Source of the DNA: an uncultured Eubacterium sp.
GTDB lineage: Bacteria > Bacillota > Clostridia > Lachnospirales > Lachnospiraceae
Assembly: GCA_910586045.1 (NCBI GenBank)
Contig: CAJUIH010000002.1
Span: 6,711-70,710 of the forward strand
Reading direction: 5' to 3'
Length of the DNA stretch: 64,000 nucleotides
Shown: in pieces, positions 11,359 to 53,485 of the stretch
Position numbering within the stretch: position 1 is the first letter of the stretch
Layout: every line of letters begins with the position of its first letter
Translations under genes and position numbers: made by a program
The notes under the pieces: generated by a model
What the model was told of the DNA's origin: nothing
The model's database searches: none
The model's input: only the letters and a program-made list of their open reading frames with translations

Positions 11359-11380
11359 CCGTGTTTTTTAAATCCTTTCC

Positions 11381-11474
11381 TATATAAACGGCGTAAAATT
11401 TCAGCACAATATCATTTGTTTCTGGCCCGCCGTTTATCGGGTTTATTGTGCAGTATTCAATCACCGAATATATA
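11381..11474 (-). repeat. 94-nt repeat element, copy 1 (in the 5' leader of the cell-wall protein gene)
   Basis: Near-identical to 24307-24400 and 35954-36047. It ends 22 nt upstream of the start codon at 11358. Confidence 0.85.
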
Positions 11475-22563: not shown

Positions 22564-22796
22564 CCTGGGGAGGGGGCTTTTTCATGCGGCTGTGACTCTC
22601 CGTAAAGCAAGAAGTTCTAAGTTTTCTGCATATTCGATTGTAAAACCGGACGGACCGGGCCTGCACCCGCCTTCCGTGGCGGGCAGGCCCTTTTGGGGAC
22701 ATCCGTGTCCCAAAATCCTGTGTACCGAGCAGAAAACTAAGAACTTCTACGCTTTTCTCCAAAGTCACAGCCGCAGGAAAAAGCCCCCTACCCAGG
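22564..22796 (-). repeat. long-hairpin repeat, subfamily 1, copy A (core inverted relative to copies B and E)
   Basis: The arms are complementary end to end: cctggggagggggcttttt…ttctaagttttctgc pairs with gcagaaaactaagaa…aaaaagccccctacccagg. The core matches copies B and E when reverse-complemented. Confidence 0.85.
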
Positions 22797-22830
22797 CTGA
22801 CAGGAATAAACGATACGTTTTTATTATTTT

Positions 22831-24299
22831 ACACCAGTTTACAACTTTTTACAAAAATAAAAATACAAACCCATCTTTTCATTGTATAATTTAAGCGTCC
22901 AAACAAAAAAATACGAAAGAAGATGAGTTTGTATCTACCGCTTATTATACATGAAAAATTCTGTCCTGGACAGACTGAAAAATTATTTTAATGAATATTT
23001 TTCGGATGCAACGAAACCCACTGCAAGGAATCTGTTCCTTATCGTTGTTTCCATACTGGCGCTGGACATTTTCCGTTCGGTACGCTTCGCCCACAGGCAT
23101 GTGCTTTCAAAAATTTCAGACACATCGCTGAATGCGTATTACTATGCGCTTAAAACTAACAGGCTGGATCATGAATCCTGGAGGGATGTGACATTATCAA
23201 AAGCATTAAAGGCTGTGCCGGAGCAGCTGGCTGCACAGCCCCTGTTCCTTTCCGTTGATGACACGATGGTGGAAAAGGAAGGTAAAAAATTCGAACTCCG
23301 CTCAAAGCTTTTGACCATGCCGCGCATAATGGTTCCAATTACCTGAATGGACACTGTATGGTAAGCATTCTGCTGTCATTCCCGGTCTTGGCGGACAGTT
23401 CCATGCGTTACCTGTCTGTCCCTCTTGGGTACCGGCTCTGGGACAAAAAACAGACAAAGCTGGAAATTGCCGCCGAAATGGTGCGGCATGCTGTGGACAG
23501 CATCGGTTCAGACAGGCAGGTGTTCCTGCTCTGCGACATCTGGTATCCGAAAGGATGTGTTGCAGGCCTTGTGGACGAATATGAAAACCTCGACATCATA
23601 TGCAATGCCAGAATAGATACAGTCATGTATGACTTTCCGCCGGAACGCACAGGGAAACGGGGCCGTCCAAAGAAATACGGTGAACGCCTGTCGCCGGAAG
23701 ATTTCGTGCTTGAATCCCCAAAAACCGGGGACTGAAAGATCGGCGTGCGCCCGATGCTGACCAGGCTCTGGAGCGGGCGTGTGGTCTATGCCGCTGTCAC
23801 GCTCCCGAAAAGCGGGAATGGAAGCCGCAGGCTTTTCTTCTGCACAAAAAATCCGGAAAGCATCATTCTGGACTACAGTAACTGCGAAGACGAAACAATC
23901 CGCGGCTATGGGGAAGAAAATGAAAAATTTCTCCCTGTCGCCTGTTACTCGCCGCGCTGTAACATTGAGGTGTCGTATTATGAAAGCAAGACTTTCTGGT
24001 CACTGGAGGAATACCGTGTACGCAGCCGTGAAAGTATTGAACGCCTGGTAAATTTAGAGTGTATAGCTTACAGTGCCATGACACTGCTCCCATACATTGA
24101 TGAATCCTTTTCGTGCTACAAGTCTTTGGGCGCACAGGAAACTAAGTTTGGCATTGGACAGCAGATTCAGGCAAGTATAATATTCAGCAGTTTCGTAGAA
24201 TCCCTCGAAACTGTAAAAAAAGCGCAGTCATTTATTAAAATATATAGAAGGCTACGTTTTATCAGGGTTCAAAAAAATCCAAAAGTTGTAAACTGGTGT
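22831..24299 (+). mobile_element. decayed IS element (IS4/IS701-like DDE transposase)
   Basis: 19-bp perfect terminal inverted repeats acaccagtttacaactttt (22831-22849 and the reverse complement of 24281-24299). 8-bp direct repeats attatttt at 22823-22830 and 24300-24307. Confidence 0.8.
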
Positions 24300-24320
24300 A
24301 TTATTTTATATATTCGGTGA
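22951..24320 (+). pseudogene. IS transposase gene inactivated by one frameshift and one in-frame stop
   Basis: Three consecutive ORFs (22951-23346, 23358-23735, 23745-24320). The frame shifts around 23300-23315 (…ELRSKL then …FDHAAHNGSNYLNGHCMVS continues in another frame). ORF2 and ORF3 share a frame and are separated by TGA 23733-23735. Confidence 0.8.
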
Positions 24321-24400
24321 TTAAATACTGCACAATAAACCCGATAAACGGCGGGCCAGAAACAAATGATATTGTGCTGAAATTTTACGCCGTTTATATA
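24307..24400 (+). repeat. 94-nt repeat element, copy 2
   Basis: Near-identical to 11381-11474 (reverse complement) and 35954-36047. It starts at the last base of the IS target duplication. Confidence 0.85.
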
Positions 24401-24694
24401 GGTCTATACAGCTTCTACATAAAGTAATGAAAATGCTTTTACATGGGAAATCTTAACCTTTGACTAAATTGCTGAAGCATTATAAAGACTAAACAAACGA
24501 AACAGATCTTTTATTTATTCTCTTTTCATCGATTTTTTGAAAGTTTTTCAACTGGTTTACCAATACTCGTATATTTTGTGTTATCATGTTTTATATGAAT
24601 TTGGTTTCCTTTTATTTGTCCATGTTTATAAATGGAACCGTTCACTTTTCAAAAATTATTAAATTGCAATTAATATTGACAAAGGAGAAAAAAC

Positions 24695-25294
24695 ATGACA
24701 AAAACAGTTTTATTCGTAATTTTACAGCAATATGCAGATTGGGAAGCTGCCTATATTTCATCTGCAATTTCTATGTTAGGACAAGGTAACTATGAGATCA
24801 AAACAGTATCTTTATCCAAAGAATACATACAGTCAATCGGTGGATTCAAGGTGATGCCAGACTATGATATTGCATCTGTTCCAGATGATTATGAGGCTCT
24901 TATTCTAATTGGAGGCATGACGTGGAGAAGCGAAAATACACAGCCAATTAAGGGACTGGTAAAGGATTGTTTTGAAAAAGGGAGATTATTAGGCGGAATA
25001 TGTGACGCTTCTGCATTTTTGGGGACAGTAGGTATACTAAATAATGTAGTTCATACAAGTAATGATTTGAATGATTTAAAGCAATGGGCAGGGGCTAATT
25101 ACACCGGAGAAGCCAATTATATTGCGAAGCAGGCAGTCTGCAATAAAAATGTAATAACAGCGAATGGTACCGCACCTTTAGAATTTGCAAAAGAGATTTT
25201 GCTTGCATTAAATGTGACGGATGAAACAGCAGTCGCTGATTGGTACAACTTCCACAAATTAGGCGTCTATACAGCCCCAATGCCTAAAATGTAA
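24695..25294 (+). CDS. DJ-1/PfpI family (class I glutamine amidotransferase-like) protein
   Basis: AAAGGAG RBS. Nucleophile-elbow motif GGICDASAFLG. The length and pattern match the DJ-1/PfpI fold. Confidence 0.8.
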   Translation: MTKTVLFVILQQYADWEAAYISSAISMLGQGNYEIKTVSLSKEYIQSIGGFKVMPDYDIASVPDDYEALILIGGMTWRSENTQPIKGLVKDCFEKGRLLGGICDASAFLGTVGILNNVVHTSNDLNDLKQWAGANYTGEANYIAKQAVCNKNVITANGTAPLEFAKEILLALNVTDETAVADWYNFHKLGVYTAPMPKM

Positions 25295-25370: not shown

Positions 25371-25595
25371 GCCGGAAACGGGGGTCCCTGCGGCTGTGAC
25401 TGCGTAAGAACGTTAGAAGCTCTTAGTATTCTGCTCGTAACCTAGGATTTTCAGGCAAGGATGCCTGAAAAAGGGTCTGTCCGCCACGGACGGCGGATAC
25501 AGACCCGGTCCGTATACAGCCGAAACCAAAATGCAGAATACTTAGAGCTTCTTACGTTCGAAAGCGTCACAGCCGCGGGGACCCCCGTTTCCGGC
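25371..25595 (+). repeat. long-hairpin repeat, subfamily 1, copy B
   Basis: Arms gccggaaacgggggtccctgcggctgtgac… and …gtcacagccgcggggacccccgtttccggc are complementary with one mismatch. It carries the conserved box and apical core. It lies between convergent genes. Confidence 0.85.
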
Positions 25596-34507: not shown

Positions 34508-35347
34508 TTAAACAGCGATAATCACGCCCCCGTTATTTGCATACATACTGCTGACGCCAGCCGTTTCCAAAATCAAAATCTCCTTAAAATGCGCTGCCTG
34601 TTCAATCAGTTCACGTACTTTCTGCGCCCGCTTTGGACAATTGCAATGGGAAATCGCAAGTATTTTCTGCTCGCAGTCCTTTGTCTTGTCTATCACTTCT
34701 TTCACCATCCGCTCCAGCGCCTTATTCATACCCTGTGCCTGCGCCAGTTGGCAGATCTGCCCGTCCGGGGTAGAACCCATAATCGGCTTGATTTTAAGCA
34801 CGCCCGCCACCAAAGCCTTTAAGTTGCTAAGTCTTCCGTTTTTGCGCAGCGTTTCCAGGGTTTCCAGCACAAAAAAAGTCTGCTGCTGTTCAATATACTG
34901 TCCGGTCTGTACAACCGTCTCTTCAAACGTATGGCCCGCCTTTTCCAATTCCTGTATTTTAATGCCGATTAATGTTTCCCCGACCGACGCCGAACAGGAG
35001 TCAAACACATGCACTTTTTTCTGCGGAAAATCCGTCTCAAACATCTGCTTTGCCACCATCGCGCTGTTATAAGAACCGCTCAGCTTTGAAGACAGTGTCA
35101 CCACATAAACGCGTTCGGCATCCGAATCGAATGCTTCGTAGTATTTCTGCGGCGACGGACACGCCGACTTCGGACAGTTCGGGCTTTCTTTTACTTTCTG
35201 CAAAAACTCCAACTGCTGGAAACTCTCGTCATCTACCACATGATAGTCATCCACGTCCAGCTCCAGCGGCACGGATTGAAAATGCCCGTCTTCTTTTAAT
35301 TCCTGCGGCAGTTCCCCGCAACTGTCTACAATAATTTTATAATGCAT
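34508..35347 (-). CDS. DegV family fatty-acid-binding protein
   Basis: Typical DegV start MHYKIIVDSCGELP and overall pattern. AGGAGG RBS. Confidence 0.9.
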   Translation of the reverse strand: MHYKIIVDSCGELPQELKEDGHFQSVPLELDVDDYHVVDDESFQQLEFLQKVKESPNCPKSACPSPQKYYEAFDSDAERVYVVTLSSKLSGSYNSAMVAKQMFETDFPQKKVHVFDSCSASVGETLIGIKIQELEKAGHTFEETVVQTGQYIEQQQTFFVLETLETLRKNGRLSNLKALVAGVLKIKPIMGSTPDGQICQLAQAQGMNKALERMVKEVIDKTKDCEQKILAISHCNCPKRAQKVRELIEQAAHFKEILILETAGVSSMYANNGGVIIAV

Positions 35348-35544
35348 AACTTCCTCCTGTATGGCCCAGCCACCAAATCCTTGCGCCGCAAAAGTTTTTT
35401 ATGCGGCTTAATATGATTTTTATTTTGATTTGATATAGTATTCATTACTACTTGATAATACCATCATTACGGAAGTTTGTAAATACATTTTTTTAAAATG
35501 GAGGGGGATTTTGTGGGGGTGCGCGGGGGAAGTGGGGGAAGTGG

Positions 35545-35771
35545 GGAGAGGCGGTTTACCCGGCCTTACGGCGGCCCTCCAGAACGTTAAGAATCCCTAA
35601 GCATTCTGTTTTTACGCAGCGTAAGGCCCCGGTCGCGGCGCCTAGTCCGCCCTGGCCCCCGCCAGTGGCTAAAGGCGCCGCTTGGCTTCGCCCCTACGTT
35701 ATCGAACAGAATGCTAAGGGATTCTAAACGTTCTTTCAAAGCCGCCGTAAGGCCGGGCAAACCACCTCTCC
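35545..35771 (-). repeat. long-hairpin repeat, subfamily 2, copy C (core inverted relative to copy D)
   Basis: Arms ggagaggcggtttacccggccttacggcgg… and …ccgccgtaaggccgggcaaaccacctctcc. The core matches copy D when reverse-complemented. Confidence 0.85.
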
Positions 35772-35953
35772 AGTCTAGCCTTTCGCATGCGTTACGCCGC
35801 ATTTGCTCACGGATCGTCCTGTTAACCGTTTATTGGTCAATCCACTTTCGTTATCCAGTTTCTGGTATGTATATTACCACTCCTGGATCCAGGATATTTT
35901 TCCAAAGGCCTGCTGTCTATCGAGCTAGCTATTTTTAGCCAGCATTCGATACC

Positions 35954-36047
35954 TATATATTCGGTGATCGAATACTGCACAATAAACCCGATAAACGGCA
36001 GGCCAGAAACAAATGATATTGTGCTGAAATTTTACGCCGTTTATATA
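35954..36047 (+). repeat. 94-nt repeat element, copy 3
   Basis: Near-identical to the two other copies. It lies inside the ORF-free island. Confidence 0.85.
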
Positions 36048-36207
36048 GTACATCGGTCACTAAATAACGCAAAGGTAGGCGCCGGATATTTTTTCGAGCG
36101 TGCATGACAAAAACCGGAGGTGTACCGGGGATCCCTCGGATTTTTGCCATGTACTATCGGAAAAATAGACAAATAAAACTATGAGATATTTATTGGCCGA
36201 TGTACTA
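36046..36207. repeat. 162-bp inverted-repeat unit with a nested hairpin
   Basis: 21-nt arms tagtacatcggtcactaaata (36046-36066) and tatttattggccgatgtacta (36187-36207) match at 19 of 21 positions. An inner imperfect inverted repeat is catgacaaaaaccggagg / ccctcggatttttgccatg. Confidence 0.7.
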
Positions 36208-36209
36208 AT

Positions 36210-36360
36210 GCCCTGTAAAGTCTAAAACTGTTACAAAACAAGGCACTGAAAATGAACTATTCAGCAAAAATTGGCTTAGGATACAGCCTTTTCAACTTTT
36301 TACTGCTATATTACCAAAAACAAATAAAATATTTTATAACAGTTTTAGCCTTTACAGGGC
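36210..36360. repeat. 151-bp MITE-like unit with 23-bp terminal inverted repeats
   Basis: gccctgtaaagtctaaaactgtt (36210-36232) and aacagttttagcctttacagggc (36338-36360) are complementary at 22 of 23 positions. Confidence 0.7.
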
Positions 36361-36452
36361 ACTCGCATACAAACCTGCTCCACGAAACCATGCCAGCCGC
36401 CCGCTGTCACACTATGAATGCCCTACATTTCACGTAAAGCCCGAGAAAACCA

Positions 36453-36688
36453 GCCGGCTGCGGGGCGGGGGACTGGCTTGCGGCGACGTTGGAAGAATGC
36501 TTAGAATCCCTTAGCATTCTGTTCGGTAACGCAGGGGCGAAGCAAAGCGGCGCCTTTAGCTGCTGGCGTAAGCCAGGGCGAACTAGGCGCCGCGTCCGGG
36601 GCATGCCGTTTTGTAAATACAGAATGCTTAGAGATTCTTAGCATTCTGGAGCCGGAGCCGCAAGCCAGTCCCCCGCCCCGCAGCCGGC
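36453..36688 (+). repeat. long-hairpin repeat, subfamily 2, copy D
   Basis: The outer 32 nt, gccggctgcggggcgggggactggcttgcggc, is perfectly complementary to 36657-36688. It carries the shared box cagaatgcttagagattc and the subfamily-2 core. Confidence 0.85.
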
Positions 36689-36720
36689 GTCCCCTCAGCC
36701 GATCAAAACTATGCCAATCC

Positions 36721-37926
36721 CTAAGGAAATATAATCACAAAGATATTAAGCTGCACATCTGTTTTGTAATATACCGTCCCCAGCCCGCCGCAATACTGGC
36801 TGATATGGTAATCCGACAGAAAGTATTCTTTTGCGCGCGTACACAGCTCGCTGTCTGCAAATTTCACGGATACATTTTTTTTGCCCGATGTATAGGCCTT
36901 TTCAAAAATTGCCCCAATCGCCGCGATCGATGTTTCATCAAATGCCGTAAAGTATTTTTTTTCACGCACATAGTAATTGTTTTTTGTCGCTGTACACGCT
37001 GGCAGCGCAAAGCTTACCTGCGGTGTGTGGTCGCGCATCATCTCTTCGGTTGTAATATTTAAATAATCGTACTCTACATATTTTACGTCGTTTTGCTCAT
37101 CGTCATGGTATTTGGAGTTTCCCCAAGTGACGTCTACATAATACCAGTCCCCGTCCAGACAGACCAGATTCCAGGCATGCGGGCCTCCTTTGGCCATCCC
37201 GGTTACGACTACGCAGGGGATGTCCAATCGTTCTAACAGATACTGCATGGCGTTCGCATAGCCCTGGCAGACGGTTTCCTTTCCCAAAAAGACGCTGATG
37301 ATGTTTTGGTTATTTTCTGCCTGTAAGTTATAATCTACCGTTTGAATCAGCCTGCGGTAGATTCCGCGCACTTTTTTATAATCTGACTGGCCTTTTAGCC
37401 CTTTGTAGTATTTTTGCGCCTGTACGTCTATTTGTTTTTGGATCTCGCCGCGTTCTTTTTCATCCATTGTATAGTTCGGCGAAAACGATACCAGTTCCGT
37501 TTCCCCGTTGTGCCGGTATTGGGTGTAGCGAAAGCTTTCTACCCAAAAAAGCCCGCCGTAATCCGCTTTGATACAGTTAAAGATATCTTCCAGGCTCTTT
37601 CCCTGCGCTTTGGAAAGCATGACTTCCTCTTTATGGTTCATGACAGCGTCTAACATCTGGTCGTATATTTTCTGGTCCTGCTGGTCCAGCGATTCATAGG
37701 CGTATTTGCCGCCGGATATGCATTCCGCCTCATAGGGCAGTTCCAATGCGTCCATATGCTGCTTTAGTTCTATATTCTGTTTGACGGTGTTTACTACTTC
37801 TTCCACCGGTTTTATCATACCCGAAAACATTTCAGACAAACCACAGCCCGCAAATGTCCCGGCCAGGGCAAGTGCCAGCATGCCAGCCGCAAGCCGCAGG
37901 CCGCTTTTTTTATGATTCCGCTTCAT
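36721..37926 (-). CDS. transglutaminase-like cysteine protease-fold lipoprotein
   Basis: Lipobox LAGTFAGC. Cys-His-Asp core (CQGYANAMQYLL … HAWNLV … YYVDVTW). ATG 37926 is preferred over the GTG at 37944 on RBS spacing. Confidence 0.8.
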   Translation of the reverse strand: MKRNHKKSGLRLAAGMLALALAGTFAGCGLSEMFSGMIKPVEEVVNTVKQNIELKQHMDALELPYEAECISGGKYAYESLDQQDQKIYDQMLDAVMNHKEEVMLSKAQGKSLEDIFNCIKADYGGLFWVESFRYTQYRHNGETELVSFSPNYTMDEKERGEIQKQIDVQAQKYYKGLKGQSDYKKVRGIYRRLIQTVDYNLQAENNQNIISVFLGKETVCQGYANAMQYLLERLDIPCVVVTGMAKGGPHAWNLVCLDGDWYYVDVTWGNSKYHDDEQNDVKYVEYDYLNITTEEMMRDHTPQVSFALPACTATKNNYYVREKKYFTAFDETSIAAIGAIFEKAYTSGKKNVSVKFADSELCTRAKEYFLSDYHISQYCGGLGTVYYKTDVQLNIFVIIFP

Positions 37927-53152: not shown

Positions 53153-53397
53153 GACGCCGGATGGAGAAAAATTTCCCTTTCTGGTATGATTCTGAAAAAA
53201 AGCTGGAAGTTCTTAGTTTTCTGCTCTATGCACAGGATTTTCGGGCACGGATGCCCGAAAAAGGAAGCTGCTGCGCCATGGACGGCGCATCAGCTTCCGG
53301 TCCGTCCATTACCGCAAATGATCGGGCAGAAAACTTAGAACTTCCAGCTTTTCTTCAGCGGAATACCAGAAAGGGAAATTTTTCTCCATCCGGCGTC
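53153..53397 (+). repeat. long-hairpin repeat, subfamily 1, copy E
   Basis: The outer 35 bp are perfectly complementary (gacgccggatggagaaaaatttccctttctggtat / ataccagaaagggaaatttttctccatccggcgtc). The box and core are shared with copies A and B. Confidence 0.85.
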
Positions 53398-53485
53398 CGG
53401 ACATGTCATAACGTAAATTGCGGAATGCTTAGGGGATTCTTGGTTCCGGAGAGCCTCTGTTCGCAATGCAACTGTACGACACTTC

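Follow-up and report, generated by a model that had tools for sequence, protein, structure and literature searches.

What are the two long hairpins that face each other in the spacer between degV and a transglutaminase-like gene of an uncultured Eubacterium sp.? We addressed this question in a stretch of 64,000 nucleotides (assembly GCA_910586045.1, contig CAJUIH010000002.1, positions 6,711 to 70,710), which we call the window. The hairpins, C (35545..35771, sense strand minus) and D (36453..36688, sense strand plus), had been described in an initial annotation of the sequence, and an inverted-repeat search and folding confirmed both of them and their inverted arrangement at these coordinates. 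Together with the DNA between them they form an island (35484..36720, no strand assigned) that, compared with relatives both close and distant, is an insertion. We consider it probable that C and D are the arms of one composite, non-autonomous, non-coding mobile repeat of the foldback type, inserted between the two genes. Membership in a family, a conserved structure with compensatory changes, a rule of orientation, presence or absence among relatives and an internal deletion were established directly.

Each arm consists, in order, of a 5' leader, a variable self-complementary outer stem, a closing helix (P1), an asymmetric apex, a 3' tail and a C-rich trailer, and in the pair the tails point outward and the leaders towards the centre. 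Each element reaches past its hairpin with leader, tail and trailer, which corrects the extent given earlier. C and D are reverse complements over 175 nt (35577-35751 and 36477-36651) at 85% identity. The hairpin arms of C, which has a Y-type outer stem, are 35545-35575/35741-35771 (94%) and 35581-35610/35705-35734 (93%), and those of D, with an X-like outer stem, are 36453-36522/36619-36688 (70 nt, 86%). Folded as single strands, C reaches -150 kcal/mol (z = -14.7) and D -160.5 kcal/mol (z = -12.2), and none of 200 shuffled sequences was equally stable. Our model R1 scored C at 157.9 bits on the minus strand against 56.9 on the plus strand, and D at 155 bits on the plus strand against 58.2 on the minus strand.

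On its sense strand, C begins with a Y-type leader (35772..35803, reverse complement GCGGCGTAACGCATGCGAAAGGCTAGACT), recognized by comparison with the family leaders, and continues through the 5' arm of P1 (35705..35734), which contains a weak promoter-like match, TTGAAA-17-TAGCAT. The apical core (35611..35704) is composed of a GCGAAGC mini-hairpin, the helix GCGGCGCC/GGCGCCGC and the stem CTGGC-GGGG-GCCAG, and is followed by the 3' arm of P1 (35581..35610) and by the trailer (35484..35544), which is rich in C on the minus strand; a 9-nt unit is repeated in tandem at 35525-35546. In D, all on the plus strand, the X-type leader (36393..36452, containing CAGCCGCCCGCTGTC and TTTCACGTAAAGCCCGAGAAAACCA) is kept in copies of other species, such as locus L048. 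The P1 boxes of D lie at 36494..36523 (5' arm) and 36621..36650 (3' arm) around the apical core (36524..36620), and, like those of C, they were located by a repeat search and box patterns. The tail of D (CCGGCGTCCCCTCAGCCGATC, 36683..36705), placed by the family tail consensus CCGGCGTCCGnGnnGCCA and by the junction with the empty site, ends ~16 nt from the transglutaminase stop codon. The initial annotation was right that the stem CTGGC-NNNN-GCCAG is kept in a distinct apical core, with the loop GTAA in D and GGGG in C.

Are C and D a local pair or members of a family? The box CAGAATGCTTAGRGATTC has 6 matches in the window against 0.07 expected. A two-arm pattern, CTTAGYWTTCTG-N85-115-CAGAAWRCTTAG, for which 0 matches were expected, picks out the five elements and no others; because both of its arms read CTTAG on one strand, this pattern orients every element. 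When one genome of each species was scanned for the two-arm pattern, at least 99 matches resulted, and the taxonomic range obtained in this way is a lower bound. Among the matches listed, at least ~94 elements carry the C/D core, about a dozen are of the TwoAYGGAY type discussed below, and a few (L054, L096 and L120) have other cores; the hosts of the C/D core are about a dozen metagenome-assembled genomes (MAGs) labelled "uncultured Eubacterium sp.", Eubacteriaceae or Lachnospiraceae. A single MAG holds at least 45 copies, many of them located at contig ends. In a metagenome collection, a pattern specific for the core found 88 stretches, 84 of them from one assembly. These counts include several copies per genome, and copies within one genome are not independent events. 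C and D belong to a large, uncatalogued repeat family of mouse-gut-type Eubacterium and Lachnospiraceae genomes, and the initial annotation's view of a family instead of a local duplication is borne out by this census. No Rfam family reached its gathering threshold on C or D, and none was found at E<=10 on 35300-36760. A RAGATH-18 RNA (RF03064, 66 bits) was observed at L080 4837-4909, ~400 nt from a C/D-type arm.

The structure was tested in an alignment of 95 copies (A2) as four helices, namely P1, the GGC-GNA-GCC mini-hairpin, the helix GCGGCRCC/GGYGCCGC and the apical stem GCU.CUGGC/GCCAG.GGC. In total, 98.1% of the cells are paired and 16 pairs have changed on both sides. None of 500 shuffles reached these values, and slid controls were 33-45% paired; RNAalifold was also run. 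The structure of the C/D type is conserved, with these 16 pairs as compensatory changes. Across the family, the covariance model scored sense strands at 130-194 bits and antisense strands at 45-73 bits. P1 contains two invariant T.T (U.U) mismatches 11 nt apart, in TTTAG/CTTAA and CTTAG/CTTAG. One of its columns shows CG 45, UG 30, UA 19 and CA 1, a conserved U.G pair is present in 85 of the 95 copies, and G.T mismatches exceed A.C mismatches by 39 to 8, a wobble bias that comes mostly from one column. Each P1 arm is an imperfect palindrome, so that the two arms repeat each other in inverted as well as direct orientation, and in the family consensus this palindrome is weak (8/11). The outer stem shows no significant wobble bias (G.T 82, A.C 66, p = 0.22), and a bias of the RNA type was rejected for it; its 5' arm shows more GC-to-AT decay than its 3' arm (105 against 43). 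The near-equal numbers of G.T and A.C point to a palindrome that was born perfect and then decayed, not to a selected RNA helix. We read the outer stem as a palindrome at the DNA level, and P1 with the apex as the part on which constraint acts when it is single-stranded.

The initial annotation had placed C and D beside a "subfamily 1" with a common flanking box. The common box was verified with the CAGAATGCTTAGRGATTC pattern and the two-arm pattern, and subfamily 1 is TwoAYGGAY (Rfam RF01731). Three TwoAYGGAY copies lie in the window: T22 (22597..22762, minus strand, 107.1 bits) and T25 (25401..25566, plus strand, 120.2 bits) form the left and right arms of a second minus/plus pair, and T53 (53191..53359, plus strand, 120.8 bits) is a solo copy with a tail on both sides (symmetric, 'type B'). 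Neither C nor D reaches the RF01731 gathering threshold of 43 bits. Since one C/D-type relative, L057, just passes it through P1 (50.3 bits) and model R1 detects TwoAYGGAY copies at 50-70 bits, the two types are diverged homologues, or sister types. They have in common the closing helix P1, with the CTTAG...CTTAG boxes and the identical fixed mismatch, as well as the junctions ..AACCAGG.. (5') and ..CCGKYCCG.. (3'); when C (as reverse complement) and D are aligned in the Rfam orientation, AAC..AGG and CCGG..CCG stand at these positions. The two-hairpin plan of the apex, the long outer stem, the leader and tail at the flanks and the arrangement in the window as pairs or solo copies are likewise common to both, and in the mixed pair L090 a C/D-type arm on the minus strand stands opposite a TwoAYGGAY arm on the plus strand. 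In contrast to TwoAYGGAY, the first hairpin of the C/D type is a GCGNAGC mini-hairpin, the second is a long helix with bulges, GCGGCRCC/GGYGCCGC, with CTGGC-loop-GCCAG on top, and AYGGAY terminal loops are absent from the cores of C and D. The proposal of two alternative cores on a common scaffold, forming a modular family, holds for the scaffold and the family; the cores are not free modules, as the two types align over their whole length with common junctions and two apical hairpins, and either model gives weak hits on the other type. The original paper describes TwoAYGGAY solely by its AYGGAY loops and a P1 that is often very large ('very large' in the supplement; Weinberg et al. 2010, PMC2864571), and the Rfam curators rate the motif as a probable RNA. 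No function is given in the original description or added by the later literature that we found, and in this literature neither type is described as a paired, mobile unit.

The flanks and the arrangement of the copies follow a common rule. In the 99 copies with flanks among the matches listed, the 5' leader has the consensus ..TTTCAYGTAAARC.T..GAAAACC-AGCCGG and the 3' tail has the consensus CCGGCGTCCG.G..GCCA (short form GGCGTCCG..GCC); the 40 nt after the tail contain 34% C and 9.5% G family-wide. Partial 5' ends are tandemly reiterated within pair centres and tails are reiterated outside the copies, and both truncated 5' ends and reiterated tails adjoin copies. Neighbours within 3 kb, among the same matches, are arranged 'minus,plus' with facing leaders in 36 cases, against 1 'plus,minus' and 2 'plus,plus'; the metagenome loci added 11 further 'minus then plus' pairs. 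The centres measure ~220 nt to 2.65 kb between the core matches. The asymmetric leader is present in 51 of 54 paired arms, and type B, with a tail on both sides, occurs among solos only, in few copies. The window fits this rule with the C/D pair, the T22/T25 pair and the type-B solo T53. In the copy-rich genome every typed pair combines one X and one Y outer stem, as do the X-like D and the Y-like C of the window. The outward inverted repeats that correspond to terminal inverted repeats (TIRs) are the tails and arms in the C/D pair and the tails in the second pair, GGCGTSCGCGAAGCCGTA in the latter, where the tails of 22597-22762 (minus) and 25401-25566 (plus) are inverted repeats of each other. 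The other centres contain leader reiterations or unrelated cargo, such as an HTH gene (L066), a GNAT gene (L093) or an SDR gene (L047). The centre of the second window pair contains an insertion sequence (IS) of the IS701 family, a miniature inverted-repeat transposable element (MITE) and a DJ-1/PfpI gene. The island centre is ~270 nt long once its own MITE and two palindromic units are subtracted, which is typical of other pairs.

Was the island inserted as a whole? The gene order CSD, DUF5721, transglutaminase-like, DegV, DUF815, MgtE, ThiF is conserved in relatives, and the DegV of the window shares 72% identity with its counterpart in E. plexicaudatum ASF492. In L215-L217, with a DegV at 96% identity, the distance from the stop codon of the transglutaminase gene to the promoter block of degV, TTTACAAACTTCCG, is 32 nt, against 1237 nt in the window, and the C trailer is also missing from this empty site. 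The island is likewise absent from L124/L125 (DegV 77% identical), which have a 149-nt spacer, and from relatives at 72% identity; the spacers of the relatives are 149-168 nt and hold no gene. In two other species, the same spacer carries different, unrelated inverted-repeat insertions (L122, 4332-5000; L126, 4678-5000, the latter GTAAATTCAGCC...GGCTGAATTCAG). The transglutaminase-degV spacer is a repeated landing place for small elements.

Seven assemblies of the same species are collinear across the island and differ in detail. In L005 and L007, 127 nt of D, comprising the apex and one box, are deleted between 12-nt direct repeats TCTAAGCATTCT. L003 lacks a 92-nt MITE and one 9-nt repeat of the C trailer. 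The first G.U wobble of the C outer stem is a Watson-Crick pair in L001, L002, L003, L005, L006 and L007, and the second in L001, L002, L003, L004, L005 and L007. A run of ~70 C (50-120) at the start of a metagenome contig, standing in place of the island in L008, was rejected as a variant spacer, being an assembly artefact at the C-rich trailer. The suggestion that the inverted pair serves as a recombination substrate is supported in one respect, the deletion of the 127-nt apex segment in two strains; the segment 35772-36452 is not inverted in any of the seven assemblies.

We therefore return to what kind of element the pair forms. The suggestion that it behaves as a composite unit agrees with the orientation counts (36 against 3) and with the whole island being a single insertion/deletion difference from a close relative, and our preferred explanation is the composite foldback-type repeat named at the outset. 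In the mechanism that we propose, the outward tails with their adjacent hairpins would be the ends recognized by a trans-acting recombinase or transposase encoded elsewhere. DNA between two outward tails would move along with them, which would explain centres containing leader reiterations, MITEs, ISs and small host genes, and solo copies with a tail on both sides may arise from recombination between arms. For recognition, P1 and the apex would have to fold in one particular single strand, either single-stranded DNA (ssDNA) or RNA, and such a demand would maintain their pairing and mismatches. Beyond this, TwoAYGGAY and its sister type could be the nucleic-acid component of a new mobilization system, in which a trans-acting enzyme reads the single-stranded hairpin and moves the bracketed DNA; we regard this bolder proposal as quite unlikely. 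Recognition in such a system would run through P1, with its two T.T/U.U mismatches one helical turn apart, and through the GNA-triloop mini-hairpins. If true, the orphan Rfam motif would have a function for the first time, and a new kind of composite element would be added to those of bacteria.

Comparisons with known elements indicate both resemblance and difference. The elements are short, non-coding and multi-copy, with inverted ends and insertion polymorphism, as MITEs are. Composites bounded by MITE pairs and foldback elements whose inverted ends are long and structured, a set to be compared with integron mobilization units, MITE-flanked integrons and composites of the Tn10/Tn5 type, resemble the C/D pair in having two non-coding, inverted end-copies with the functional ends outward and arbitrary DNA between them, a high copy number, presence/absence polymorphism and small elements nested in the centre. 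Unlike in MITE-pair composites, the search for a matching autonomous IS and for a target duplication of C/D gave neither, each 'end' is a ~230-nt hairpin with a conserved asymmetric apex and a defined strand, and the arms of the family belong to two distinct types in several genomes. REPIN and REP-RAYT elements, pneumococcal BOX, Neisseria Correia and enterobacterial ERIC repeats are similarly intergenic, multi-copy, hairpin-forming and modular, with internal indel variants, and their folding is believed to take place in RNA or ssDNA. However, the C/D family has no sequence relation to them, is much longer, has a strongly conserved structured apex and obligatory head-to-head pairing, and no RAYT-like gene was observed near its copies. 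In the REPIN/RAYT system a REP doublet hairpin goes together with a RAYT (Y1 HUH) gene flanked by REPs; the P1 arms of the C/D family are weak palindromes in inverted orientation. A PATE derived from IS200/IS605 was rejected, since the left- and right-end hairpins of a PATE are active on the same strand and lack terminal inverted repeats, and the sense strands of C and D lie on opposite DNA strands.

Several results weigh against the composite mobile repeat and are taken together here. Up to 8 kb around each of the 99 matches, we found no transposase or recombinase gene linked to the copies and no autonomous partner with the same ends, and there was no RAYT-like or Y1 transposase among the recurrent neighbours of the copies. 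No target-site duplication could be read at the single filled/empty comparison, where the flanks have diverged. The core pattern had 0 matches in viral contigs, and arm D had no BLAST match in plasmids and phages; 14 single-box matches in viral contigs were rejected, all being chance hits inside phage genes. The P1 wobble bias fits an RNA function equally well, as does the apex, which is conserved far beyond the needs of a transposon spacer. The asymmetric leader is also present in 19 unpaired copies, and a universal X/Y heterotypy was rejected because other genomes contain 5 YY pairs and 1 XX pair. Finally, the window centre matches no other pair's centre, and centres are not conserved between copies. 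This sits badly with copying of the composite in one piece, which would require fast turnover of the centre.

The main rival, which we hold to be unlikely, treats the arms as TwoAYGGAY-like genes for structured small RNAs, with the pair transcribed divergently from its centre; the leader would contain promoter or regulatory sites, the C-rich, G-poor trailer would be an anti-Shine-Dalgarno seed or a Rho entry site, and the copies would stem from duplication. This agrees with the strong purifying selection on apex and P1 with compensatory changes, the clear functional strand, the U.G pair kept in 85 of 95 copies and the P1 column with CG 45, UG 30, UA 19 and CA 1. It also agrees with both sense strands pointing away from a common centre, the leader conserved across species, the trailer composition (34% C, 9.5% G) and the curators' rating of TwoAYGGAY. 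On the other hand, copy numbers of 45-80 per genome, assemblies broken at copies, truncation and reiterated ends are marks of repeats and not of small-RNA genes, the outer stem lacks wobble bias, and copies have no consistent orientation relative to neighbouring genes and are present or absent between near-identical lineages. In the leaders we saw no convincing promoter of the sigma-70 type, nor a convincing intrinsic terminator beyond the tails, a GC-rich hairpin with a U-run being absent at either arm; TTGGAA-17-TAGYAT in the 5' P1 arm was rejected as a promoter, as it is weak and not kept in the TwoAYGGAY copies of the window. Very unlikely, in our view, is a host role of the hairpins as transcription insulators or stabilizers of mRNA ends, as proposed for REP, ERIC and BOX, a role for which the hairpins would be retained, with their spread being secondary. 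The 3' side of the element is usually 36-300 nt from a gene end (the tail of D ends ~16 nt from the transglutaminase stop codon), the hairpins are very stable and the C-rich trailer resembles a Rho entry site; however, no U-tract follows the hairpins, neighbouring genes lie in either orientation (62 opposite, 45 same), the island is missing at the same locus in close relatives, and neither the conserved asymmetric apex nor the pair rule is explained.

Also very unlikely is a switch in which a site-specific recombinase would use the P1 arms as its core sites and the apex would be excisable or invertible. The layout would be a centre of 5-6 bp between two half-sites of 11 bp in inverted orientation, such as AGAATGCTTAG-AATCC-CTTAGCATTCT, and the imperfect palindromes of the P1 arms, at once inverted and direct repeats, would suit it, as would the two strains that lack exactly one box and the apex (127 nt) and the core of L073, which is flipped relative to its own leader and tail. 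Against this, the deletion junction has a 12-nt direct repeat, so that replication slippage across the hairpin suffices without an enzyme, only ~1/75 copies have a flipped core, no recombinase gene was found nearby, the box palindrome is weak in the family consensus (8/11) and the core has no promoter-like sequence. An invertible promoter switch (inverton) was likewise rejected in an assembly-level comparison, with seven collinear assemblies and ~1/75 cores flipped family-wide. We give practically no weight to a reading in which the island is coding sequence in decay, or C and D arose locally by a single inverted duplication. The spacer offers short ORFs (open reading frames) of 61-75 aa and nothing else in favour of this, and as the initial annotation had held, none is credible: the longest all run across the palindromes and none has a Pfam match at E<=0.1. 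The relatives' spacers of 149-168 nt without a gene support the annotation's view that the island is not decayed coding sequence, the repeats of the island also occur elsewhere, and the census and the empty site refute both versions.

The small elements nested in the window deserve a description of their own. Between C and D, the initial annotation had listed a 94-nt repeat and two further inverted-repeat units; the two units stand, at 36046-36207 and 36209-36361, and the '94-nt repeat' is the 92-nt MITE, which has three copies in the window. This MITE (35954..36045, plus strand) has the TIR TATAWWCGGYG and is flanked by TA. The members of its family, 92-95 nt long and 97-100% identical within the 64 kb, lie at 11380-11474 (minus), 24307-24401 (plus) and 35954-36048 (plus), and its absence from L003 indicates that the family was recently active. 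The adjacent palindromic units, of 162 nt (36046..36207, no strand assigned, TIR TAGTACATCGG..., partial match in L074) and 153 nt (36209..36361, no strand assigned, 30-nt TIRs), have TIRs of 29-30 nt, are single-copy in the window and are probably MITEs of further families. In the second pair, whose arms are 2.65 kb apart, the IS701-family IS (22830-24300, 1471 bp) has perfect 20-bp TIRs TACACCAGTTTACAACTTTT and, apparently, a direct repeat of 10 bp, TATTATTTTA, on either side; three ORFs (22951-23346, 23358-23735 and 23745-24320) hold the pieces of its broken transposase, with DDE_5 fragments and an NCBIfam IS701 match. As an autonomous partner this IS was rejected, its 20-bp TIRs being unrelated to the hairpin ends. 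The pair also encloses the MITE copy and the DJ-1/PfpI gene (24695-25294). An isolated box fragment, GCGGAATGCTTAGGGGATTCTTGG, at 53420-53450, ~60 nt 3' of the solo TwoAYGGAY copy, may be a leftover of another arm.

Genes near the copies were considered as linked enzymes. The recurrent neighbouring ORFs encode ABC transporters, histidine kinases, methyl-accepting chemotaxis proteins and response regulators, and were rejected for this role. Genes for AAA-ATPase_like + PDDEXK_9 proteins recur near the elements (L050 774-2474, L079 3667-5235 and L094 3781-4392; also L097, L100 and L201), and three loci have such a gene immediately beside an arm's 3' tail, oriented the same way, which could be chance in a multi-copy gene family. 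The centre of L085 (4458-6243) contains an 80-aa PDDEXK_2 fragment (25 bits, under the cut-off, for 'PD-(D/E)XK nuclease family transposase') and a 302-aa ORF without a family match; neither was retained, as they were found in no other locus.

TwoAYGGAY has been an orphan 'probable RNA' since 2010. With a far more abundant sister type, outward pairs with leaders and tails, and presence/absence of a pair in near-identical lineages, its biology is now testable. The choice to be made is between a mobile composite element and a pair of small-RNA genes, and culturable relatives exist, such as the Eubacterium plexicaudatum clade. The repeats break MAG assemblies and bracket small host genes. Furthermore, as one sister-type copy passes the Rfam threshold, a few copies may carry the annotation of TwoAYGGAY 'cis-regulatory RNAs', and the interpretation of RNA-family counts in gut metagenomes is affected by these repeats.

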